This document shows, piece after piece, positions 5,394-44,827 of a stretch of DNA of 64,000 nt. How positions within the stretch are numbered: position 1 is the first letter of the stretch; the number at the start of each line of letters is the position of its first letter. The translations under genes were made by a program, and so were the position numbers. This DNA is from Escherichia coli (lineage in GTDB: Bacteria; Pseudomonadota; Gammaproteobacteria; Enterobacterales; Enterobacteriaceae), in NCBI RefSeq assembly GCF_003334355.1, contig NZ_QOWP01000001.1, one strand, 5' to 3'. The notes below the pieces were generated by a model. That model was not told where the DNA came from. It ran no database searches and saw only the letters and a program-made list of their open reading frames with translations.

Positions 5394-5957
<564 letters not shown>

Positions 5958-12822: not shown

Positions 12823-12926
12823 GCTTTTTACGCCTCAAACTTTCGTTTTCGGGCATTTCGTCCAGACTTAAGTTCACAACACCTCACCGGAGCCTGCTCC
12901 GGTGAGTTCATATAAAGGAGGAACGT

Positions 12927-37922: not shown

Positions 37923-38711
37923 TTAGCCTATCTGCACCGACAGCATACTCAGGCTGCCCATTTCTATACCCTCAACCGGAATGGTAATTGGCTCCTGCCC
38001 ATCCCACGCACCTAACACATACAACAACGGCAAATAATGCTCTGGCGTTGGGTTCGATAACGTGCCACCTTCATGGTCGAGGTAATTCACCAGAGGATGT
38101 TGTTCCACTAGCCCTTGCCACGTCAGATTCGCTTTCACATACTCATTAAACGACGTCGCCCACGGATACGGTGAACTATCACCGTGCCACTTCACTGTGC
38201 GCAGGTTATGCACCACGTTACCGCTGGCGACCAACATTATTCCTTCATCTCGCAGCGCTGCCAGTTTGCGCCCCATTTCGAAATGCCAGGCGGCAGGTTT
38301 GCTACTGTCGATACTCAACTGCACCATCGGGATATCAGCGTCAGGATACATCTTAATCAGCACGCCCCACGAGCCGTGGTCAAAGCCCCAGGCTTCTTTA
38401 TCCAGCGTCACCGGGATCGGCGCTAACAGCTCAACCAGACGCTGTGCCAGCGCAGGCGAACCCGGAGCAGGATAATGCGTATCGTACAGCGCCTGCGGGA
38501 AGCCACCAAAGTCATGAATCGTGGGCGGCGTCTCCATCGCGGTCACTCCTGTTCCACGGGTAAACCAGTGAGCCGAAACCACCACAATCGCTTGCGGGCG
38601 TGGCAATGTCATCCCCAACTTCTGCCAGCTGCGGGTATACAAATTATCTTCCAGCACGTTCATCGGACTACCGTGACCTAAAAACAATGCTGGCATACGT
38701 GTTGAAGACAT
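37923..38711 (-). CDS. ygiD: Extradiol ring-cleavage dioxygenase family protein YgiD (DOPA dioxygenase-like)
   Basis: ORF trimmed to the internal ATG giving 262 aa (MSSTRMPALFLGHGSPMNVLEDN...); a start 9 codons upstream (MTPLVKDII...) is also possible. Confidence 0.85.
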   Translation of the reverse strand: MSSTRMPALFLGHGSPMNVLEDNLYTRSWQKLGMTLPRPQAIVVVSAHWFTRGTGVTAMETPPTIHDFGGFPQALYDTHYPAPGSPALAQRLVELLAPIPVTLDKEAWGFDHGSWGVLIKMYPDADIPMVQLSIDSSKPAAWHFEMGRKLAALRDEGIMLVASGNVVHNLRTVKWHGDSSPYPWATSFNEYVKANLTWQGLVEQHPLVNYLDHEGGTLSNPTPEHYLPLLYVLGAWDGQEPITIPVEGIEMGSLSMLSVQIG

Positions 38712-38853
38712 GATGATATCCTTAACTAAAGGTGTCATTTTGATATCCTCACAATACGCTTGTTCGGCGGAGTAAGAACCCGGATAACAATGATGATGAT
38801 CATCAGTTATTTTGACGATCTGCCTGAAGGTGAAGATTTATAAGGAGTTGTCG

Positions 38854-39627
38854 ATGTCAGTACCTCTCATTCTGACCATACTGGCGGGGGCAGCCACGTT
38901 TATTGGCGCGTTTCTCGGCGTTCTCGGGCAAAAACCCTCGAACCGCTTACTGGCGTTTTCGCTAGGTTTTGCGGCGGGGATCATGTTGCTCATCTCATTA
39001 ATGGAAATGCTTCCTGCCGCACTAGCAGCTGAAGGAATGTCGCCTGTGTTGGGTTATGGAATGTTTATCTTCGGTCTGCTTGGCTATTTTGGCCTGGACC
39101 GCATGTTGCCACATGCTCATCCGCAGGATTTAATGCAAAAATCGGTGCAGCCGTTGCCAAAATCGATCAAGCGCACAGCCATTCTGCTCACTCTCGGCAT
39201 CAGTCTGCATAACTTCCCGGAAGGGATTGCCACCTTTGTCACGGCGAGCAGCAACCTGGAGCTGGGATTTGGCATCGCACTGGCCGTCGCGTTGCACAAT
39301 ATTCCTGAAGGTCTGGCGGTTGCAGGCCCGGTTTATGCAGCAACGGGTTCTAAACGCACGGCAATTCTGTGGGCGGGGATTTCTGGATTGGCAGAAATTC
39401 TTGGTGGTGTGCTGGCGTGGTTAATCCTCGGTAGCATGATTTCCCCGGTGGTCATGGCGGCAATCATGGCGGCGGTTGCAGGAATTATGGTGGCGCTCTC
39501 GGTTGATGAATTAATGCCGCTCGCCAAAGAGATTGACCCTAATAATAACCCCAGCTATGGCGTACTATGTGGAATGTCAGTGATGGGATTCAGTTTAGTG
39601 CTGCTACAAACGGCGGGAATTGGTTAA
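38854..39627 (+). CDS. zupT: Zinc transporter ZupT (ZIP family)
   Basis: ORF trimmed to 257 aa ([23 protein letters not shown]...); AAGGAG Shine-Dalgarno 7 nt upstream; ZIP-like HNxPEG motifs. Confidence 0.93.
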
Positions 39628-39684
39628 AAACAACATCAGAAGTTGTCCAGCACATGGACAACTTCTGCCAGCTTCACGAAAGCC

Positions 39685-39855
39685 TTATTCTACCTTTTCG
39701 GCTGTCTCTTCTCTCGTACTGTTTAAGTATTTGTTCCGCGCTTCAAGCAGTGCGTCTCTGTCCTGGCGAAACGCCCGACAATAACGTTTCAAATGCAGGA
39801 AATAACCCACCACAACCAGAGCAATCAATACAATCCAGTACCAGGCGATAAACAT
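39685..39855 (-). CDS. Candidate small single-pass membrane protein (56 aa), unassigned
   Basis: ATG at 39855 preceded by AAGGG about 6 nt upstream; MFIAWYWIVLIALVVVGYFLHLKRYCRAFRQDRDALLEARNKYLNSTREETAEKVE: one hydrophobic helix then a charged tail. No homology assessed. Confidence 0.35.
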   Translation of the reverse strand: MFIAWYWIVLIALVVVGYFLHLKRYCRAFRQDRDALLEARNKYLNSTREETAEKVE

Positions 39856-40056
39856 CCTTTTACCCTTAATATTTAACAATACTAAACATTTAGCGCATAA
39901 ATTTCACATATCCTTTTTCGGATATATTCATATGGTCGCATAATAACGGAACAATTATATGATTTTGATCATAATGAAAAAGAATGCCTGATATTAATGA
40001 AATTTTCTCATAGAAAGAGAAGCGGAATTAACATCTTGCATAGCAGGGAAAAATAA

Positions 40057-40084
40057 AAACCGAAGCCTGCTACAACTTCGGTTT
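40057..40084. terminator. Bidirectional intrinsic terminator downstream of ribB
   Basis: A-run, stem AAACCGAAG / CTTCGGTTT with a 10-nt loop, then T-run; lies about 35 bp past the ribB stop. Confidence 0.6.
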
Positions 40085-40116
40085 CTTGATTAAGGCAGTA
40101 AATTAAGCAGCGGTTT

Positions 40117-40770
40117 TCAGCTGGCTTTACGCTCATGTGCCTGACGGTATGCCACCAAGTCTTCAATAGTCACGAGCGCCATGTTGTGTTTATTGGCAAA
40201 CTCAATGCACTCTGGTGCACGCGCCATCGTGCCATCGTCATTAGTCAGCTCACACAGCACACCAGCCGGTTTAAAGCCTGCCAGCGTCATCAAATCAATA
40301 GTCGCTTCAGTATGACCGCCACGCGTCAGTACACCACCTGCCTGCGCGCGAAGTGGGAAAACGTGGCCCGGGCGATTCAGATCAGAAGGTTTTGCGCCAT
40401 CGGCAATCGCTGCGCGAACGGTCGTAATACGATCAGCGGCAGAAACACCGGTAGTCACACCTTCAGCCGCTTCAATGGTCACGGTAAAACCGGTGCCATA
40501 GGCGCTGGTGTTATTTTCTACCATCATTGGCAGATCAAGTTGTTTACGGCGATCTTCAGTGATGCACAGGCAAACAATACCGCTACCGTGGCGAATGGTC
40601 AGCGCCATCTGCTCAACGGTCATGGTTTCTGCCGGGAAGATCATATCGCCTTCGTTTTCACGGTCTTCATCATCAAGCACCATTACACCGCGTCCTTCAC
40701 GCAGCGCAGCCAGTGCATTTTCAACACGTTCGAAAGGCGTACCAAAAGAGGAAAGTAGCGTCTGATTCAT
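40117..40770 (-). CDS. ribB: 3,4-dihydroxy-2-butanone 4-phosphate synthase RibB
   Basis: 217-aa [48 protein letters not shown]... Confidence 0.95.
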
Positions 40771-40869
40771 GGTAAAAAAACCTCACTAAAATTATGGTTA
40801 CCAGAATCAGGGCAGTCTTAGGAGTGGCGGCATATAGCCAAAATAACGTGAGCGGGTCCATGCCCGACA

Positions 40870-41025
40870 GAATCGTTACTCTCTCCCATCCGGACTCTAA
40901 CCGTCGGCCCCGGAATTACACCGGATCTGCTGTCCTTTGAGTTCGCACTCAAAGCGCTCGCGGGCTTTCAACCAAGTTGATTTACCGCCGGTGGGGAATT
41001 TCGCCCCGCCCTGAGAATAAGCGGA
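40870..41025 (-). promoter_or_regulatory. FMN riboswitch (RFN element) in the ribB 5' leader
   Basis: Minus-strand leader contains the conserved RFN blocks ...GGGGCGAAATTCCCCACCGGCGGTA...AGCCCGCGAGCG...GGACAGCAGATCCGGTGTAATTCCGGGGCCGACGGTTAGAGTCCGGATGGGAGA..., upstream of the riboflavin-pathway gene ribB. Confidence 0.85.
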
Positions 41026-41143
41026 TTCACTATAACGCTAATGATTAGCGGCAGCAACGCATAGCTTCACATAATTCTGGTTTATGACTTACCCTTATCG
41101 CACTACAATGGCACTCAACACCTATCAGTACAGGGAAACTACA

Positions 41144-41434
41144 ATGATTGACCCGAAAAAAATTGAGCAAATCGCTCGCCAGGTTCACGAATCAATGCCT
41201 AAAGGAATCAGGGAGTTCGGGGAAGATGTGGAGAAAAAAATCCGCCAAACCCTACAAGCGCAGCTGACGCGCCTCGACCTTGTAAGCCGTGAAGAGTTCG
41301 ACGTCCAAACGCAAGTCCTGTTACGGACTCGTGAGAAACTGGCGCTGCTTGAACAAAGAATCAGCGAACTGGAAAATCGCAGTACTGAGATCAAAAAGCA
41401 GCCAGATCCAGAGACTCTCCCCCCAACGCTGTAA
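41144..41434 (+). CDS. ubiK: Ubiquinone biosynthesis accessory factor UbiK (YqiC, BMFP family)
   Basis: ORF trimmed to the ATG giving 96 aa ([35 protein letters not shown]...); coiled-coil character. Confidence 0.85.
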
Positions 41435-41450
41435 ACATTTGTCTTTAATG

Positions 41451-41496
41451 CACTGTAAATTATGAATTAATCCTCTAATTTACAGTGTTTTCTATT
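41451..41496 (+). terminator. Hairpin plus T-tract after ubiK
   Basis: CACTGTAAATT / AATTTACAGTG perfect 11-bp inverted repeat with a 15-nt loop, followed by TTTTCTATT; AT-rich stem, so it could instead be a protein-binding palindrome. Confidence 0.45.
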
Positions 41497-41717
41497 ACAT
41501 TATCGCTTAATCCCATTCAGAGTATCATCACAAAAATGAATGATTGCAATTGAAAATATAATTGTTATGTATTCTTTAAGTTTTACTTAATCGATATTTA
41601 GATAAACTAATTTTATAAAAATCACAAAACAAAATATAATATTTTAATGATTGGTAGTCCTTAAATAACAGTTACTAATCATTCTCTTTTTTACTTATCT
41701 TTATATAAAGGAATATT

Positions 41718-42269
41718 ATGTCTGCTTTTAAAAAGTCACTTCTTGTTGCTGGTGTAGCAATGATTCTTTCCAATAACGTGTTTGCTGATGAAGGTCACGG
41801 TATTGTTAAATTTAAAGGTGAAGTTATCTCTGCTCCATGTTCTATTAAACCAGGTGACGAAGATTTAACTGTAAATCTGGGTGAAGTAGCAGATACCGTA
41901 CTGAAAAGCGATCAGAAATCTTTGGCGGAACCTTTCACTATTCACCTGCAGGACTGCATGCTGAGTCAGGGTGGAACTACTTATTCAAAAGCGAAGGTTA
42001 CTTTCACTACAGCAAATACCATGACGGGTCAGTCTGATCTTCTGAAAAATACCAAAGAAACTGAAATCGGCGGCGCCACTGGCGTTGGCGTACGTATTCT
42101 GGACAGCCAGAGCGGCGAAGTAACTTTAGGTACTCCGGTAGTAATTACGTTCAACAATACCAACAGCTATCAGGAACTGAATTTCAAAGCTCGTATGGAA
42201 TCCCCAAGCAAAGATGCCACCCCGGGCAACGTTTACGCTCAGGCTGACTACAAGATTGCTTACGAGTAA
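41718..42269 (+). CDS. ygiL: Fimbrial major subunit (type 1 pilin-like) YgiL
   Basis: 183-aa ORF with signal peptide MSAFKKSLLVAGVAMILSNNVFA; AAAGGA Shine-Dalgarno; AT-rich upstream region. Confidence 0.85.
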   Translation: MSAFKKSLLVAGVAMILSNNVFADEGHGIVKFKGEVISAPCSIKPGDEDLTVNLGEVADTVLKSDQKSLAEPFTIHLQDCMLSQGGTTYSKAKVTFTTANTMTGQSDLLKNTKETEIGGATGVGVRILDSQSGEVTLGTPVVITFNNTNSYQELNFKARMESPSKDATPGNVYAQADYKIAYE

Positions 42270-42319
42270 TCGCATTTGGCCGGGTTCACCCGGCCACATC
42301 ATTAACGGATTAATGATAA

Positions 42320-44827
42320 GTGGATCAGATGTATAAAAAATTAAAATTAACCACAATAAGCGAATTGATTAAAAATATTTATTGTTCATTATCCGTTATC
42401 ATCATTGGTTGTGCGTCAGCTTATGCCGTTGAATTCAACAAAGATTTAATCGAAGCCGAAGATCGTGAAAACGTTAACCTTTCCCAATTTGAAACTGATG
42501 GCCAATTACCCGTCGGCAAATATTCACTAAGCACTCTGATTAATAATAAGAGGACGCCAATCCACCTTGACCTCCAATGGGTATTAATTGATAACCTAAC
42601 TGCAGTTTGCGTGACACCAGAGCAATTAACATTATTAGGCTTTACTGATGAGATTATTGAAGAGGCTCAGCAAAACCTGATCGATGGTTGTTACCCTATC
42701 GAAAAAGAAAAACAAATTACAACTTATCTCGATAAAGGGAAAATGCAATTATCCATATCTGCACCTCAGGCATGGTTAAAATACAAAGATGCAAACTGGA
42801 CGCCTCCTGAACTTTGGGATCATGGTATTGCTGGGGCATTTCTTGACTACAATTTATATGCCTCTCATTATGCACCACATCAGGGCGATAATTCACAAAA
42901 TATAAGTTCCTATGGGCAGGCTGGGGTTAATCTTGGGGCCTGGCGCCTGCGTACTGATTACCAGTACGATCAGTCATTTAACAATGGCAAAAGCCAGGCG
43001 AACAACCTGGATTTTCCGCGTATTTATTTGTTTCGCCCAATCCCAGCAATTAATGCAAAACTAACTATAGGTCAATACGATACTGAATCCTCTATTTTCG
43101 ACTCTTTCCATTTTTCTGGCGTTTCGTTGAAAAGCGATGAGAATATGTTGCCGCCTGATCTACGTGGTTACGCACCGCAAATCACGGGTGTTGCACAAAC
43201 GAATGCAAAGGTCACTGTCTCACAGAACAACCGTATTATTTATCAAGAAAACGTTCCTCCAGGCCCATTTTCTATTACCAATTTATTCAATACATTACAG
43301 GGGCAACTGGACGTCAAGGTTGAAGAAGAGGACGGGCGCGTCACGCAATGGCAAGTTGCATCTAATAGCATTCCTTATCTGACGCGTAAAGGGCAGATTC
43401 GCTACACTACTGCAATGGGGAAACCGACCAGCGTTGGCGGCGATTCCTTACAACAGCCCTTCTTCTGGACCGGTGAATTCTCATGGGGTTGGCTGAACAA
43501 TGTATCCCTGTATGGTGGTTCAGTATTAACAAACCGTGATTATCAATCCCTGGCTACCGGAGTTGGTTTTAACCTTAACTCGTTGGGCTCATTATCCTTT
43601 GATGTCACGCGATCTGATGCTCAGTTACATAATCAGAATAAAGAAACGGGTTATAGCTACCGTGCTAACTATTCAAAACGTTTTGAATCTACCGGTAGCC
43701 AGCTCACTTTCGCTGGCTACCGTTTCTCTGATAAAAACTTTGTGTCGATGAATGAATATATCAATGACACTAACCATTACACGAATTATCAGAATGAAAA
43801 AGAGAGTTATATTGTCACGTTTAACCAGTATCTTGAATCATTGAGATTAAATACATACGTAAGTCTGGCTCGTAATACTTACTGGGACGCCAGCAGTAAT
43901 GTGAATTATTCATTATCACTTAGCCGCGATTTTGATATCGGCCCATTAAAAAACGTATCCACCTCACTAACATTTAGCCGAATAAACTGGGAAGATGACA
44001 ACCAGGATCAACTGTACCTAAATATTTCAATTCCCTGGGGAACCAGTAGAACATTGAGCTATGGTATGCAACGAAATCAGGATAACAACATTTCGCATAC
44101 TGCTTCGTGGTATGACTCTTCCGATCGAAATAATTCCTGGAGCGTTTCTGCTTCAGGCGACAATGACGAATTTAAAGATATGGAGGCGTCACTGCGCGCC
44201 AGTTATCAGCATAATACCGAGAACGGTCGTCTCTATCTCTCCGGTACATCACAGCGGGATAGCTACTATTCTCTGAATGCCAGTTGGAACGGTTCATTCA
44301 CTGCAACTCGCCACGGCGCCGCTTTCCATGACTATAGTGGTAGTGCTGACTCGCGTTTTATGATCGACGCAGACGGCGCTGAAGATATTCCGTTGAATAA
44401 TAAACGCGCGGTAACTAATCGGTATGGCATCGGAGTTATTCCATCAGTCAGCAGTTACATAACAACATCATTAAGCGTTGATACCCGAAATCTTCCAGAA
44501 AATGTGGATATCGAAAACTCGGTTATCACCACCACCTTAACCGAAGGTGCTATTGGCTACGCCAAACTTGATACCCGCAAGGGCTATCAAATCATGGGGG
44601 TTATTCGCCTGGCAGATGGTAGTCACCCACCACTGGGGATTAGCGTAAAAGATGAAACCAGCCACAAAGAATTAGGACTTGTTGCTGATGGCGGCTTTGT
44701 ATACCTCAACGGCATTCAGGATGACAGCAAACTTACTTTACGCTGGGGTGACAAATCTTGCTTTATTCAACCACCCAAGAGCAGCAACTTAACCACCGGA
44801 ACGGTGATTTTACCGTGTATTAGCTAA
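42320..44827 (+). CDS. yqiG: Fimbrial outer-membrane usher YqiG, uninterrupted
   Basis: 835-aa ORF from a GTG (first ATG at 42329); usher-sized with usher-like conserved region; continuous frame with no inserted element. Confidence 0.88.
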   Translation: MDQMYKKLKLTTISELIKNIYCSLSVIIIGCASAYAVEFNKDLIEAEDRENVNLSQFETDGQLPVGKYSLSTLINNKRTPIHLDLQWVLIDNLTAVCVTPEQLTLLGFTDEIIEEAQQNLIDGCYPIEKEKQITTYLDKGKMQLSISAPQAWLKYKDANWTPPELWDHGIAGAFLDYNLYASHYAPHQGDNSQNISSYGQAGVNLGAWRLRTDYQYDQSFNNGKSQANNLDFPRIYLFRPIPAINAKLTIGQYDTESSIFDSFHFSGVSLKSDENMLPPDLRGYAPQITGVAQTNAKVTVSQNNRIIYQENVPPGPFSITNLFNTLQGQLDVKVEEEDGRVTQWQVASNSIPYLTRKGQIRYTTAMGKPTSVGGDSLQQPFFWTGEFSWGWLNNVSLYGGSVLTNRDYQSLATGVGFNLNSLGSLSFDVTRSDAQLHNQNKETGYSYRANYSKRFESTGSQLTFAGYRFSDKNFVSMNEYINDTNHYTNYQNEKESYIVTFNQYLESLRLNTYVSLARNTYWDASSNVNYSLSLSRDFDIGPLKNVSTSLTFSRINWEDDNQDQLYLNISIPWGTSRTLSYGMQRNQDNNISHTASWYDSSDRNNSWSVSASGDNDEFKDMEASLRASYQHNTENGRLYLSGTSQRDSYYSLNASWNGSFTATRHGAAFHDYSGSADSRFMIDADGAEDIPLNNKRAVTNRYGIGVIPSVSSYITTSLSVDTRNLPENVDIENSVITTTLTEGAIGYAKLDTRKGYQIMGVIRLADGSHPPLGISVKDETSHKELGLVADGGFVYLNGIQDDSKLTLRWGDKSCFIQPPKSSNLTTGTVILPCIS

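Follow-up and report, generated by a model that had tools for sequence, protein, structure and literature searches.

The ribB FMN riboswitch of an Escherichia coli genome with a minority aptamer allele: aptamer, expression platform and predicted flanking promoters

The closest described system is the FMN riboswitch in the ribB leader of Escherichia coli K-12 (RF00050, sroG leader). The full-length transcript used by Eschbach 2024 is 282 nt long and consists of the riboswitch plus 10 codons, and FMN binding to nascent transcripts of the K-12 allele is known, with Kswitch values of 23-206 nM (PMC11571811). According to that study, FMN protects P1 (RNase H probe 137, Kswitch 176 nM) and the 5' strand of a sequestering stem at nt 215-227 (probe 218, 206 nM), sensing is efficient at pause 175 (23 nM) and poor at pause 247 (7.7 μM), which defines a transcriptional window, and mutations of C175 and G176 together with probing implicate a competing helix, anti*-P1. 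In Bastet 2017 (PMC5499598), control of the ribB mRNA was lost in a rho R66S mutant of K-12, for which ChIP gave a termination score of 3.1, and ribB was classed as being under direct Rho control, citing Hollands 2012. For a ribB template, single-molecule assays with purified components and no ribosomes are reported to give more Rho termination when ribocil-C is present (PMC10085680). The view that rut sites lie in the riboswitch and the expression platform is taken from the same literature (PMC11571811, PMC5499598, PMC10085680).

Two further groups of leaders are related by architecture or by mechanism. The Bacillus subtilis ribD (ribDG) leader carries the same six-helix aptamer family and shares kinetic, cotranscriptional sensing with pauses, but it works through an intrinsic terminator and antiterminator, whereas the ribB leader described here has none and would instead use sequestration of the Shine-Dalgarno (SD) sequence and AUG, together with Rho. 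The Salmonella mgtA Mg2+ leader and the E. coli thiM, thiC and lysC leaders likewise show ligand-dependent Rho termination in the leader and pauses near the start codon, although their aptamers and ligands are different; moreover, Rho acts on thiM indirectly, through lost translation, whereas direct rut exposure has been reported for ribB (PMC5499598).

We analysed a 64,000-nt stretch of E. coli DNA (contig NZ_QOWP01000001.1), hereafter the window, in which the locus, promoter, aptamer, platform and start site are the same as in K-12. The gene order zupT-yqiD-ribB / ubiK-ygiL is also the same, and all the published helices are found. The element is thus already known: it is the FMN riboswitch of E. 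coli ribB, and the SroG RNA derives from the same leader. As a discovery it is of little weight, being a textbook riboswitch that is annotated automatically by RefSeq and has been dissected experimentally for more than 20 years. What is gained concerns the annotation of the window: a 373-bp gap is explained, and the ribB +1, its promoter and the regulatory helices are placed in window coordinates (Table 1).

A reading of the sequence alone had located RFN blocks on the minus strand between ribB and ubiK, assigned them to a known RNA class in the 5' leader of ribB, divergent from ubiK, and offered the riboswitch as the reason for an unusually long intergenic region of 373 bp. Each of these points was borne out. 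The gap is exactly 373 bp (40771-41143), from the ribB ATG at 40770 to the ubiK ATG at 41144, and RefSeq places an "FMN riboswitch" between both genes. The leader, running from +1 (41022) to 40771, measures 252 nt and takes up 68% of the gap, 149 nt of the gap being aptamer. Promoter DNA and the ubiK 5' UTR make up the other 121 bp (41023-41143). RNA positions are numbered so that position n equals window position 41023 - n, which puts the AUG at nt 253; with +1 at 41022, the published C175, G176, U181 and G149 are the same bases here.

Table 1. Features of the ribB leader and its surroundings in window coordinates (published pauses from PMC11571811; hexamers and candidate helices are predictions).
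Feature	Window position	Strand	RNA positions and basis
FMN aptamer (RFN element), P1-P6	40874..41022	minus	RNA 1-149; RF00050; RefSeq "FMN riboswitch", same 149 nt
P1, 5' strand UUAUUCUC	41013..41020	minus	RNA 3-10; pairs 8/8 with RNA 140-147
P1, 3' strand GAGAGUAA	40876..40883	minus	RNA 140-147
anti*-P1, 5' strand	40874-40882	minus	RNA 141-149; overlaps P1 3' strand
anti*-P1, 3' strand CGUUAUUUU	40840..40848	minus	RNA 175-183; pairs 9/9 with RNA 141-149
Hairpin H1, expression platform	40853..40866	minus	RNA 157-160 / 167-170
C-rich, G-poor rut-like stretch	40793..40862	minus	RNA 161-230; C/G 1.6-2.0; includes ACUCCUAAGAC; composition scan
Conserved block ACUCCUAAGAC	40815-40825	minus	RNA 198-208
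anti-P1 candidate, 3' strand CUGCCCUGA	40807..40815	minus	RNA 208-216; pairs 9/9 with RNA 9-17
anti-P1 candidate, 5' strand UCAGGGCGG	41006-41014	minus	RNA 9-17
Sequestering stem, 5' strand CUGAUUCUGGUAA	40798..40810	minus	RNA 213-225
Sequestering stem, 3' strand UUACC-AUG-AAUCAG	40762..40775	minus	RNA 248-261; ribB start codon 40768-40770
Shine-Dalgarno GAGG	40781..40784	minus	RNA 239-242; enclosed by sequestering stem
Published pause sites	175 = 40848; 247 = 40776	minus	PMC11571811
ribB -35 TTGCTG	41052..41057	minus	Predicted, relaxed sigma-70 scan; 17 nt from -10; TTG (CAA on plus) conserved in 13 taxa
ribB -10 TATAGT	41029..41034	minus	Predicted, relaxed scan; ACTATAAC on plus strand invariant across 13 enterobacterial taxa; ends 7 nt upstream of +1
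ribB +1	41022	minus	Implied by published numbering; first base of Rfam match
Candidate ubiK promoter (-35 TTTATG 41081-41086; 17-nt spacer; -10 TACAAT 41104-41109)	41081..41109	plus	Predicted, relaxed scan
ribB CDS (3,4-dihydroxy-2-butanone-4-phosphate synthase, 217 aa), regulated gene	40117..40770	minus	ORF list and RefSeq; ATG at 40770
ubiK CDS (96 aa), divergent neighbour	41144..41434	plus	RefSeq annotation mapped onto window; ORF list
ribB intrinsic terminator	40055..40086	minus	Terminator scan; 13-bp stem, then T run

The aptamer was identified with cmscan and Rfam 15 over window positions 38000-44000. This covariance-model scan of the minus strand, which the sequence-only reading had proposed as its own check, gave a significant RF00050 match at 40874-41022, scoring 121.4 bits against a gathering threshold of 66.2. 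The match is 149 nt long and covers model positions 1-138 of 138 without truncation, with an E-value of 7.3e-29 in the 6-kb search and 7.8e-28 in a search of the whole window; the whole-window Rfam scan at gathering thresholds returned the same match. In the alignment all helices P1-P6 are paired and the upper-case consensus blocks are matched. One non-canonical closing pair is flagged in P3, and it is unpaired in all 25 species compared below (column 93/135). Read along the minus strand, the ribB ATG follows the 3' end of the aptamer at a distance of 104 nt, and this cis layout is the same in 24 other species. In strain 504239, which is 100% identical, RefSeq annotates a 149-nt "FMN riboswitch" whose limits coincide with those of the Rfam match. 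The score, the six helices with their core blocks and the cis position before a flavin gene place the element in RF00050. Two sub-threshold Rfam matches, one to AdoCbl-II (22.3 against 36.5 bits) overlapping the FMN aptamer and one to snoZ105, were treated as chance.

Downstream of the aptamer, the leader holds the pairings that a translational platform needs, and these, like the aptamer match itself, their conservation and the lack of an intrinsic terminator, are shown in the present work. The sequestering stem is made of nt 213-219 with 255-261 (7/7) and nt 221-225 with 248-252 (5/5), so that the AUG (253-255) lies within the stem, and an inner pairing of nt 230-235 with 239-244 (6/6) contains the SD sequence GAGG. 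Of the segments complementary to the leader's 5' end, the longest gives the 9/9 pairing of nt 9-17 with 208-216. It overlaps P1 at nt 9-10 and the sequester at nt 213-216, as a switch requires, and it is, in this putative register, our candidate for the published anti-P1 (PMC11571811). Mutually exclusive pairings thus link P1 to the helix that occludes the SD sequence and the start codon.

We then turn to relatives. Scanning species-representative genomes with a pattern of the conserved 3' aptamer block gave at least 120 loci in many phyla; among the matches listed, 26 loci are followed 102-225 nt downstream by the start of a ribB homologue (65-99% identity) in the same orientation. An alignment of 24 gammaproteobacterial ribB leaders with that of the window (25 species) shows the riboswitch in other Enterobacterales and in Vibrio as well. 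Beyond the aptamer it contains three near-invariant blocks separated by variable hairpins: GAGAGAGUAACG ... CGUUAUUUU, then ACUCCUAAGAC-UGCCCUGAUUCUGGUAA, and finally UUACCAUGAAUCAGAC, which includes ribB codons 1-3. Across the 25 species the OFF structure is paired in 95.3% of cells, compared to 35-55% when the partners are slid. For the individual helices, the proportion of paired cells is 99.7% in the sequester (10 of 12 pairs never vary), 93% in P1, 100% in the candidate anti-P1 (6 of 8 pairs invariant) and 83.5% in anti*-P1.

Compensatory changes were observed in P5 and in H1, where three of the four pairs change on both sides; H1 is the only platform helix to show them. For the sequester, anti-P1 and anti*-P1, essentially no covariation was detected among the 25 species, both strands being near-invariant, and for this reason the switching helices are backed by conservation of both strands and by the published experiments rather than by covariation. 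Such conservation is compatible with these helices and is not proof of them, invariant pairs being neutral evidence. From Escherichia to Vibrio, the start-codon block of the sequester 3' strand keeps every nucleotide, a pattern that fits ribB codons 1-3 being constrained by their role as one strand of the sequestering stem. AUGAAUCAG, which spans these codons (40762-40775, minus strand), is also kept in Vibrio and in the alphaproteobacteria Thalassospira and Kiloniella (loci L087, L088 and L097).

No intrinsic terminator was found by the terminator scan between the aptamer and ribB (40771-40874, minus strand); the only minus-strand terminators in the scan are the one after ribB (Table 1) and one at 41165-41177, antisense inside ubiK. 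The absence of a leader terminator fits the published FMN-dependent translational repression and Rho-dependent termination. It is accompanied by a C-rich, G-poor tract, the combination looked for in a Rho attenuator, and the assignment of rut to RNA 161-230 is plausible, its exact location being judged from composition. Taking these data together, we consider it almost certain that the element is a functional ribB FMN riboswitch acting through sequestration of the ribosome-binding site and Rho termination.

By analogy with the K-12 allele, which differs at 3 nt and supplied the experiments on FMN binding, switching, pauses and Rho dependence, the switch would operate as follows. A sigma-70 promoter (TTGCTG, 17 nt, TATAGT) would set the start of the minus-strand transcript at 41022, and the first 149 nt of RNA would fold into the six-helix aptamer. 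FMN bound cotranscriptionally, up to about the point at which the polymerase leaves the nt 175 pause, would lock P1 (3-10 / 140-147) and so block both anti*-P1 (141-149 / 175-183) and anti-P1 (around 9-17 / 208-216). Nucleotides 213-225 would then be free to pair with nt 248-261, burying the SD sequence GAGG and the ribB AUG and blocking translation initiation. The ligand-bound fold would also expose the C-rich rut of the leader, and Rho would end transcription ahead of ribB or soon after the gene is entered. If FMN is absent, the anti-P1 helices would be the first to form, leaving the start site open, so that ribosomes load and full-length ribB mRNA is made.

Folding predictions were compared with this scheme. 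In ligand-free nascent RNA the predicted probability of P1 falls from 0.79 in a 150-nt transcript to 0.48 at 163 nt and to 0.06 at 175 nt, while anti-P1 has a predicted probability of 0.82 in transcripts of 218-255 nt; these values reproduce a sensing window. Once nt 255-261 are included, the nearest-neighbour model gives a ligand-free sequester probability of 0.92-0.97 and an anti-P1 probability of 0.04-0.13, and the full-length ligand-free RNA has values of 0.97 and 0.04, respectively. An ON fold with anti-P1 enforced lies 5.4 kcal/mol above the minimum free energy (MFE). Since the equilibrium fold of the full-length RNA favours the sequester even without ligand, the model predicts an ON state only of a kinetic kind, reached during transcription. 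Folding of the aptamer and platform, also suggested by the sequence-only reading, had a divided outcome: P1 (8/8), anti*-P1 (9/9) and the sequester (12/12) all pair, but at equilibrium the full-length RNA is not predicted to adopt the ON state. The equilibrium prediction conflicts with published RNase H probing of the full-length RNA, in which nt 215-227 are accessible when no ligand is present (PMC11571811). One explanation is an error in the energy model; the other is that the ON state is a kinetic trap, captured in vivo when ribosomes load at the 247 pause. We favour the second explanation, by inference. Folding of the whole leader showed no significant excess stability (z = -1.18), a measure that is uninformative for a multi-state RNA.

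The ON state may include one more pairing. The CUCCU (199-203) of ACUCCUAAGAC, a block that may thus have a role besides that of rut sequence, could pair with the invariant GGGAG (136-140) of the aptamer core and stack on anti*-P1, giving a 14-bp interrupted helix, an idea that we put forward tentatively and think less likely to be right than wrong. In the models the GGGAG/CUCCU pairing is present in the ligand-free MFE structure with a probability of 0.5-0.75, and it is paired in 96% of cells across the 25 species, with no compensatory change. The extension does not appear in the text of the 2024 study, where nt 150-210 of the ON state are left uncharacterised (PMC11571811). If it is true, this helix would pull the FMN pocket apart and, in the ON state, surround the C-rich tract, a point of specialist interest only.

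Another arrangement, which we regard as improbable, is that the riboswitch directly controls translation only, and that Rho termination follows indirectly from ribosome-free ribB mRNA, as in thiM. The sequester is indeed the most strongly conserved feature of the platform, a second stretch with C in excess over G lies just inside the ORF (RNA 241-310), and Bastet 2017 shows the thiM route and ties translational control to Rho in general (PMC5499598). However, the same paper classes ribB as direct on the authority of Hollands 2012, ribocil-C raises Rho termination without ribosomes (PMC10085680), and the conserved C-rich block at RNA 161-230 is enclosed by the ON-state helices.

A different view of the leader is that its main product is the trans-acting small RNA SroG, cis control of ribB being secondary. 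SroG does come from the ribB 5' leader, with its function stated to be unknown (PMC7456131, citing Vogel 2003), and the aptamer is a compact and stable 149-nt structure. Against this, PMC7456131 reports no target or trans function, the cis mechanism has been shown experimentally, and the best-conserved sequences outside the aptamer are the cis-acting sequester strands. We therefore judge a primarily trans-acting leader to be very unlikely. A trans role of SroG could coexist with the cis switch and would not replace it.

Turning to the allele, 5426 of 5426 complete E. coli genomes carry a match that covers at least 80% of a 501-bp query spanning the gap. In 5418 genomes its identity is 99% or more, and the annotation of the matched stretch reads "riboswitch | ribB | ubiK". 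The ribB-leader segment occurs at 5429 places in the 5426 genomes; it is present twice in at least one genome, and one place is on a plasmid. The sequence-only reading had ribB under flavin feedback control "in this strain". The flavin control stands, but not as a property of the strain, the riboswitch being present in all 5426 E. coli genomes and in other taxa.

Compared to K-12 MG1655, 408 of 411 aligned bases are identical, and the aptamers are 98% identical. Two of the three differences, at RNA 49-50 (UG in the window, CA in K-12), lie in the triloop that caps the P2 extension. The third, at RNA 74 (A in the window, G in K-12), turns a G-U into an A-U pair in the P3 extension. In the Rfam consensus all three columns are variable, being lower-case or loop positions. 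When the aptamer alone was searched, 470 of 5426 complete genomes (~9%) were at least 99% identical to the window, the rest being mostly at 98.0%, the K-12 type. With the aptamer pairs enforced, both alleles adopt the same structure, at -42.9 kcal/mol here and -42.0 in K-12 (0.9 more stable).

The small share of such genomes (470 of 5426) might be taken as a sign that the aptamer has decayed or changed its specificity, a suggestion we find hardly credible: the three differences are confined to the P2 triloop and a P3-extension pair, at positions of low conservation in the Rfam model, the score is 121 bits, the A74 is shared with the E. albertii aptamer and the predicted aptamer fold is unchanged. 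Nothing in the minority allele suggests altered function, the U49 G50 A74 haplotype should, on the modelled structures, be functionally neutral, and no functional difference from K-12 is expected. Because the FMN riboswitch is an antibacterial target (roseoflavin, ribocil), its natural allele variation is of some practical interest.

A mechanism like that of B. subtilis ribD, in which FMN lets an intrinsic terminator hairpin form, shares the aptamer family and could point to the seven-U run after the SD sequence (RNA 243-249), but it can be dismissed for practical purposes, since the terminator scan of the minus strand at 40771-40874 detected no T run preceded by a G+C-rich stem, the U run is inside the sequester loop after a weak A/U-rich stem, and E. 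coli riboswitches are reported to make no use of intrinsic terminators (PMC11571811).

The ribB switch shares its intergenic region with two predicted promoters. A default sigma-70 scan found no promoter in 40000-41500, and a relaxed scan, accepting at least 3 of 6 matches in the -35 element, was needed to detect the ribB and ubiK candidates. We aligned the 121 bp from the ribB +1 to the ubiK ATG across 13 enterobacterial taxa. On the ubiK strand, TACAAT/TACACT and a GGTTTAT block are conserved across these taxa, which makes TACAAT/TTTATG our candidate for the ubiK promoter. The expectation of the sequence-only reading that this promoter must share the gap agrees with that prediction. CATAAT (41070-41075) was considered as the ubiK -10 and set aside, as it is not conserved across the 13 taxa, whereas TACAAT is. 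The candidate ubiK -35 and the ribB -35 stand back to back, 23 bp apart, and both promoters lie outside the riboswitch. No published ubiK transcription start site was found in literature searches. A 116-aa form of UbiK beginning at an in-frame ATG at 41084 (41084-41143, plus strand) was likewise rejected: this ATG is upstream of the conserved -10 TACAAT, which makes it unlikely that the extension belongs to the ubiK transcript, and the annotated start is 41144.

Other candidates in and around the leader were discarded. One was a possible leader peptide, a 46-aa ORF (40721-40861) whose ATG (RNA 162-164) falls within the variable loop of H1; most related species lack this ATG. A match to the STnc240 sRNA at the 3' end and terminator of ribB (40048-40118, minus strand) reached 29.1 bits against a gathering threshold of 55 and probably reflects resemblance to the terminator.

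Several observations concern the wider window. The small ORF at 39685-39879 (minus strand), between zupT and ribB, is the annotated 56-aa YqiD; with an upstream TTG as its start, the mechanical ORF has 64 aa. An intact fimbrial usher gene, yqiG, is present as an 835-aa ORF (42320-44827, plus strand), whereas IS2 splits the K-12 MG1655 copy, a pseudogene. Further Rfam matches above gathering were the ES173 sRNA at 12825-12888 (plus strand, 99 bits) and naRNA4 at 58161-58231 (minus strand, 79.3 bits). Two tandem full-length SIB_RNA (RF00113) matches, at 49717-49866 and 50092-50241 on the minus strand (147.7 and 141.5 bits), are presumably the sibD/sibE antitoxin RNAs opposite ibs toxin ORFs.
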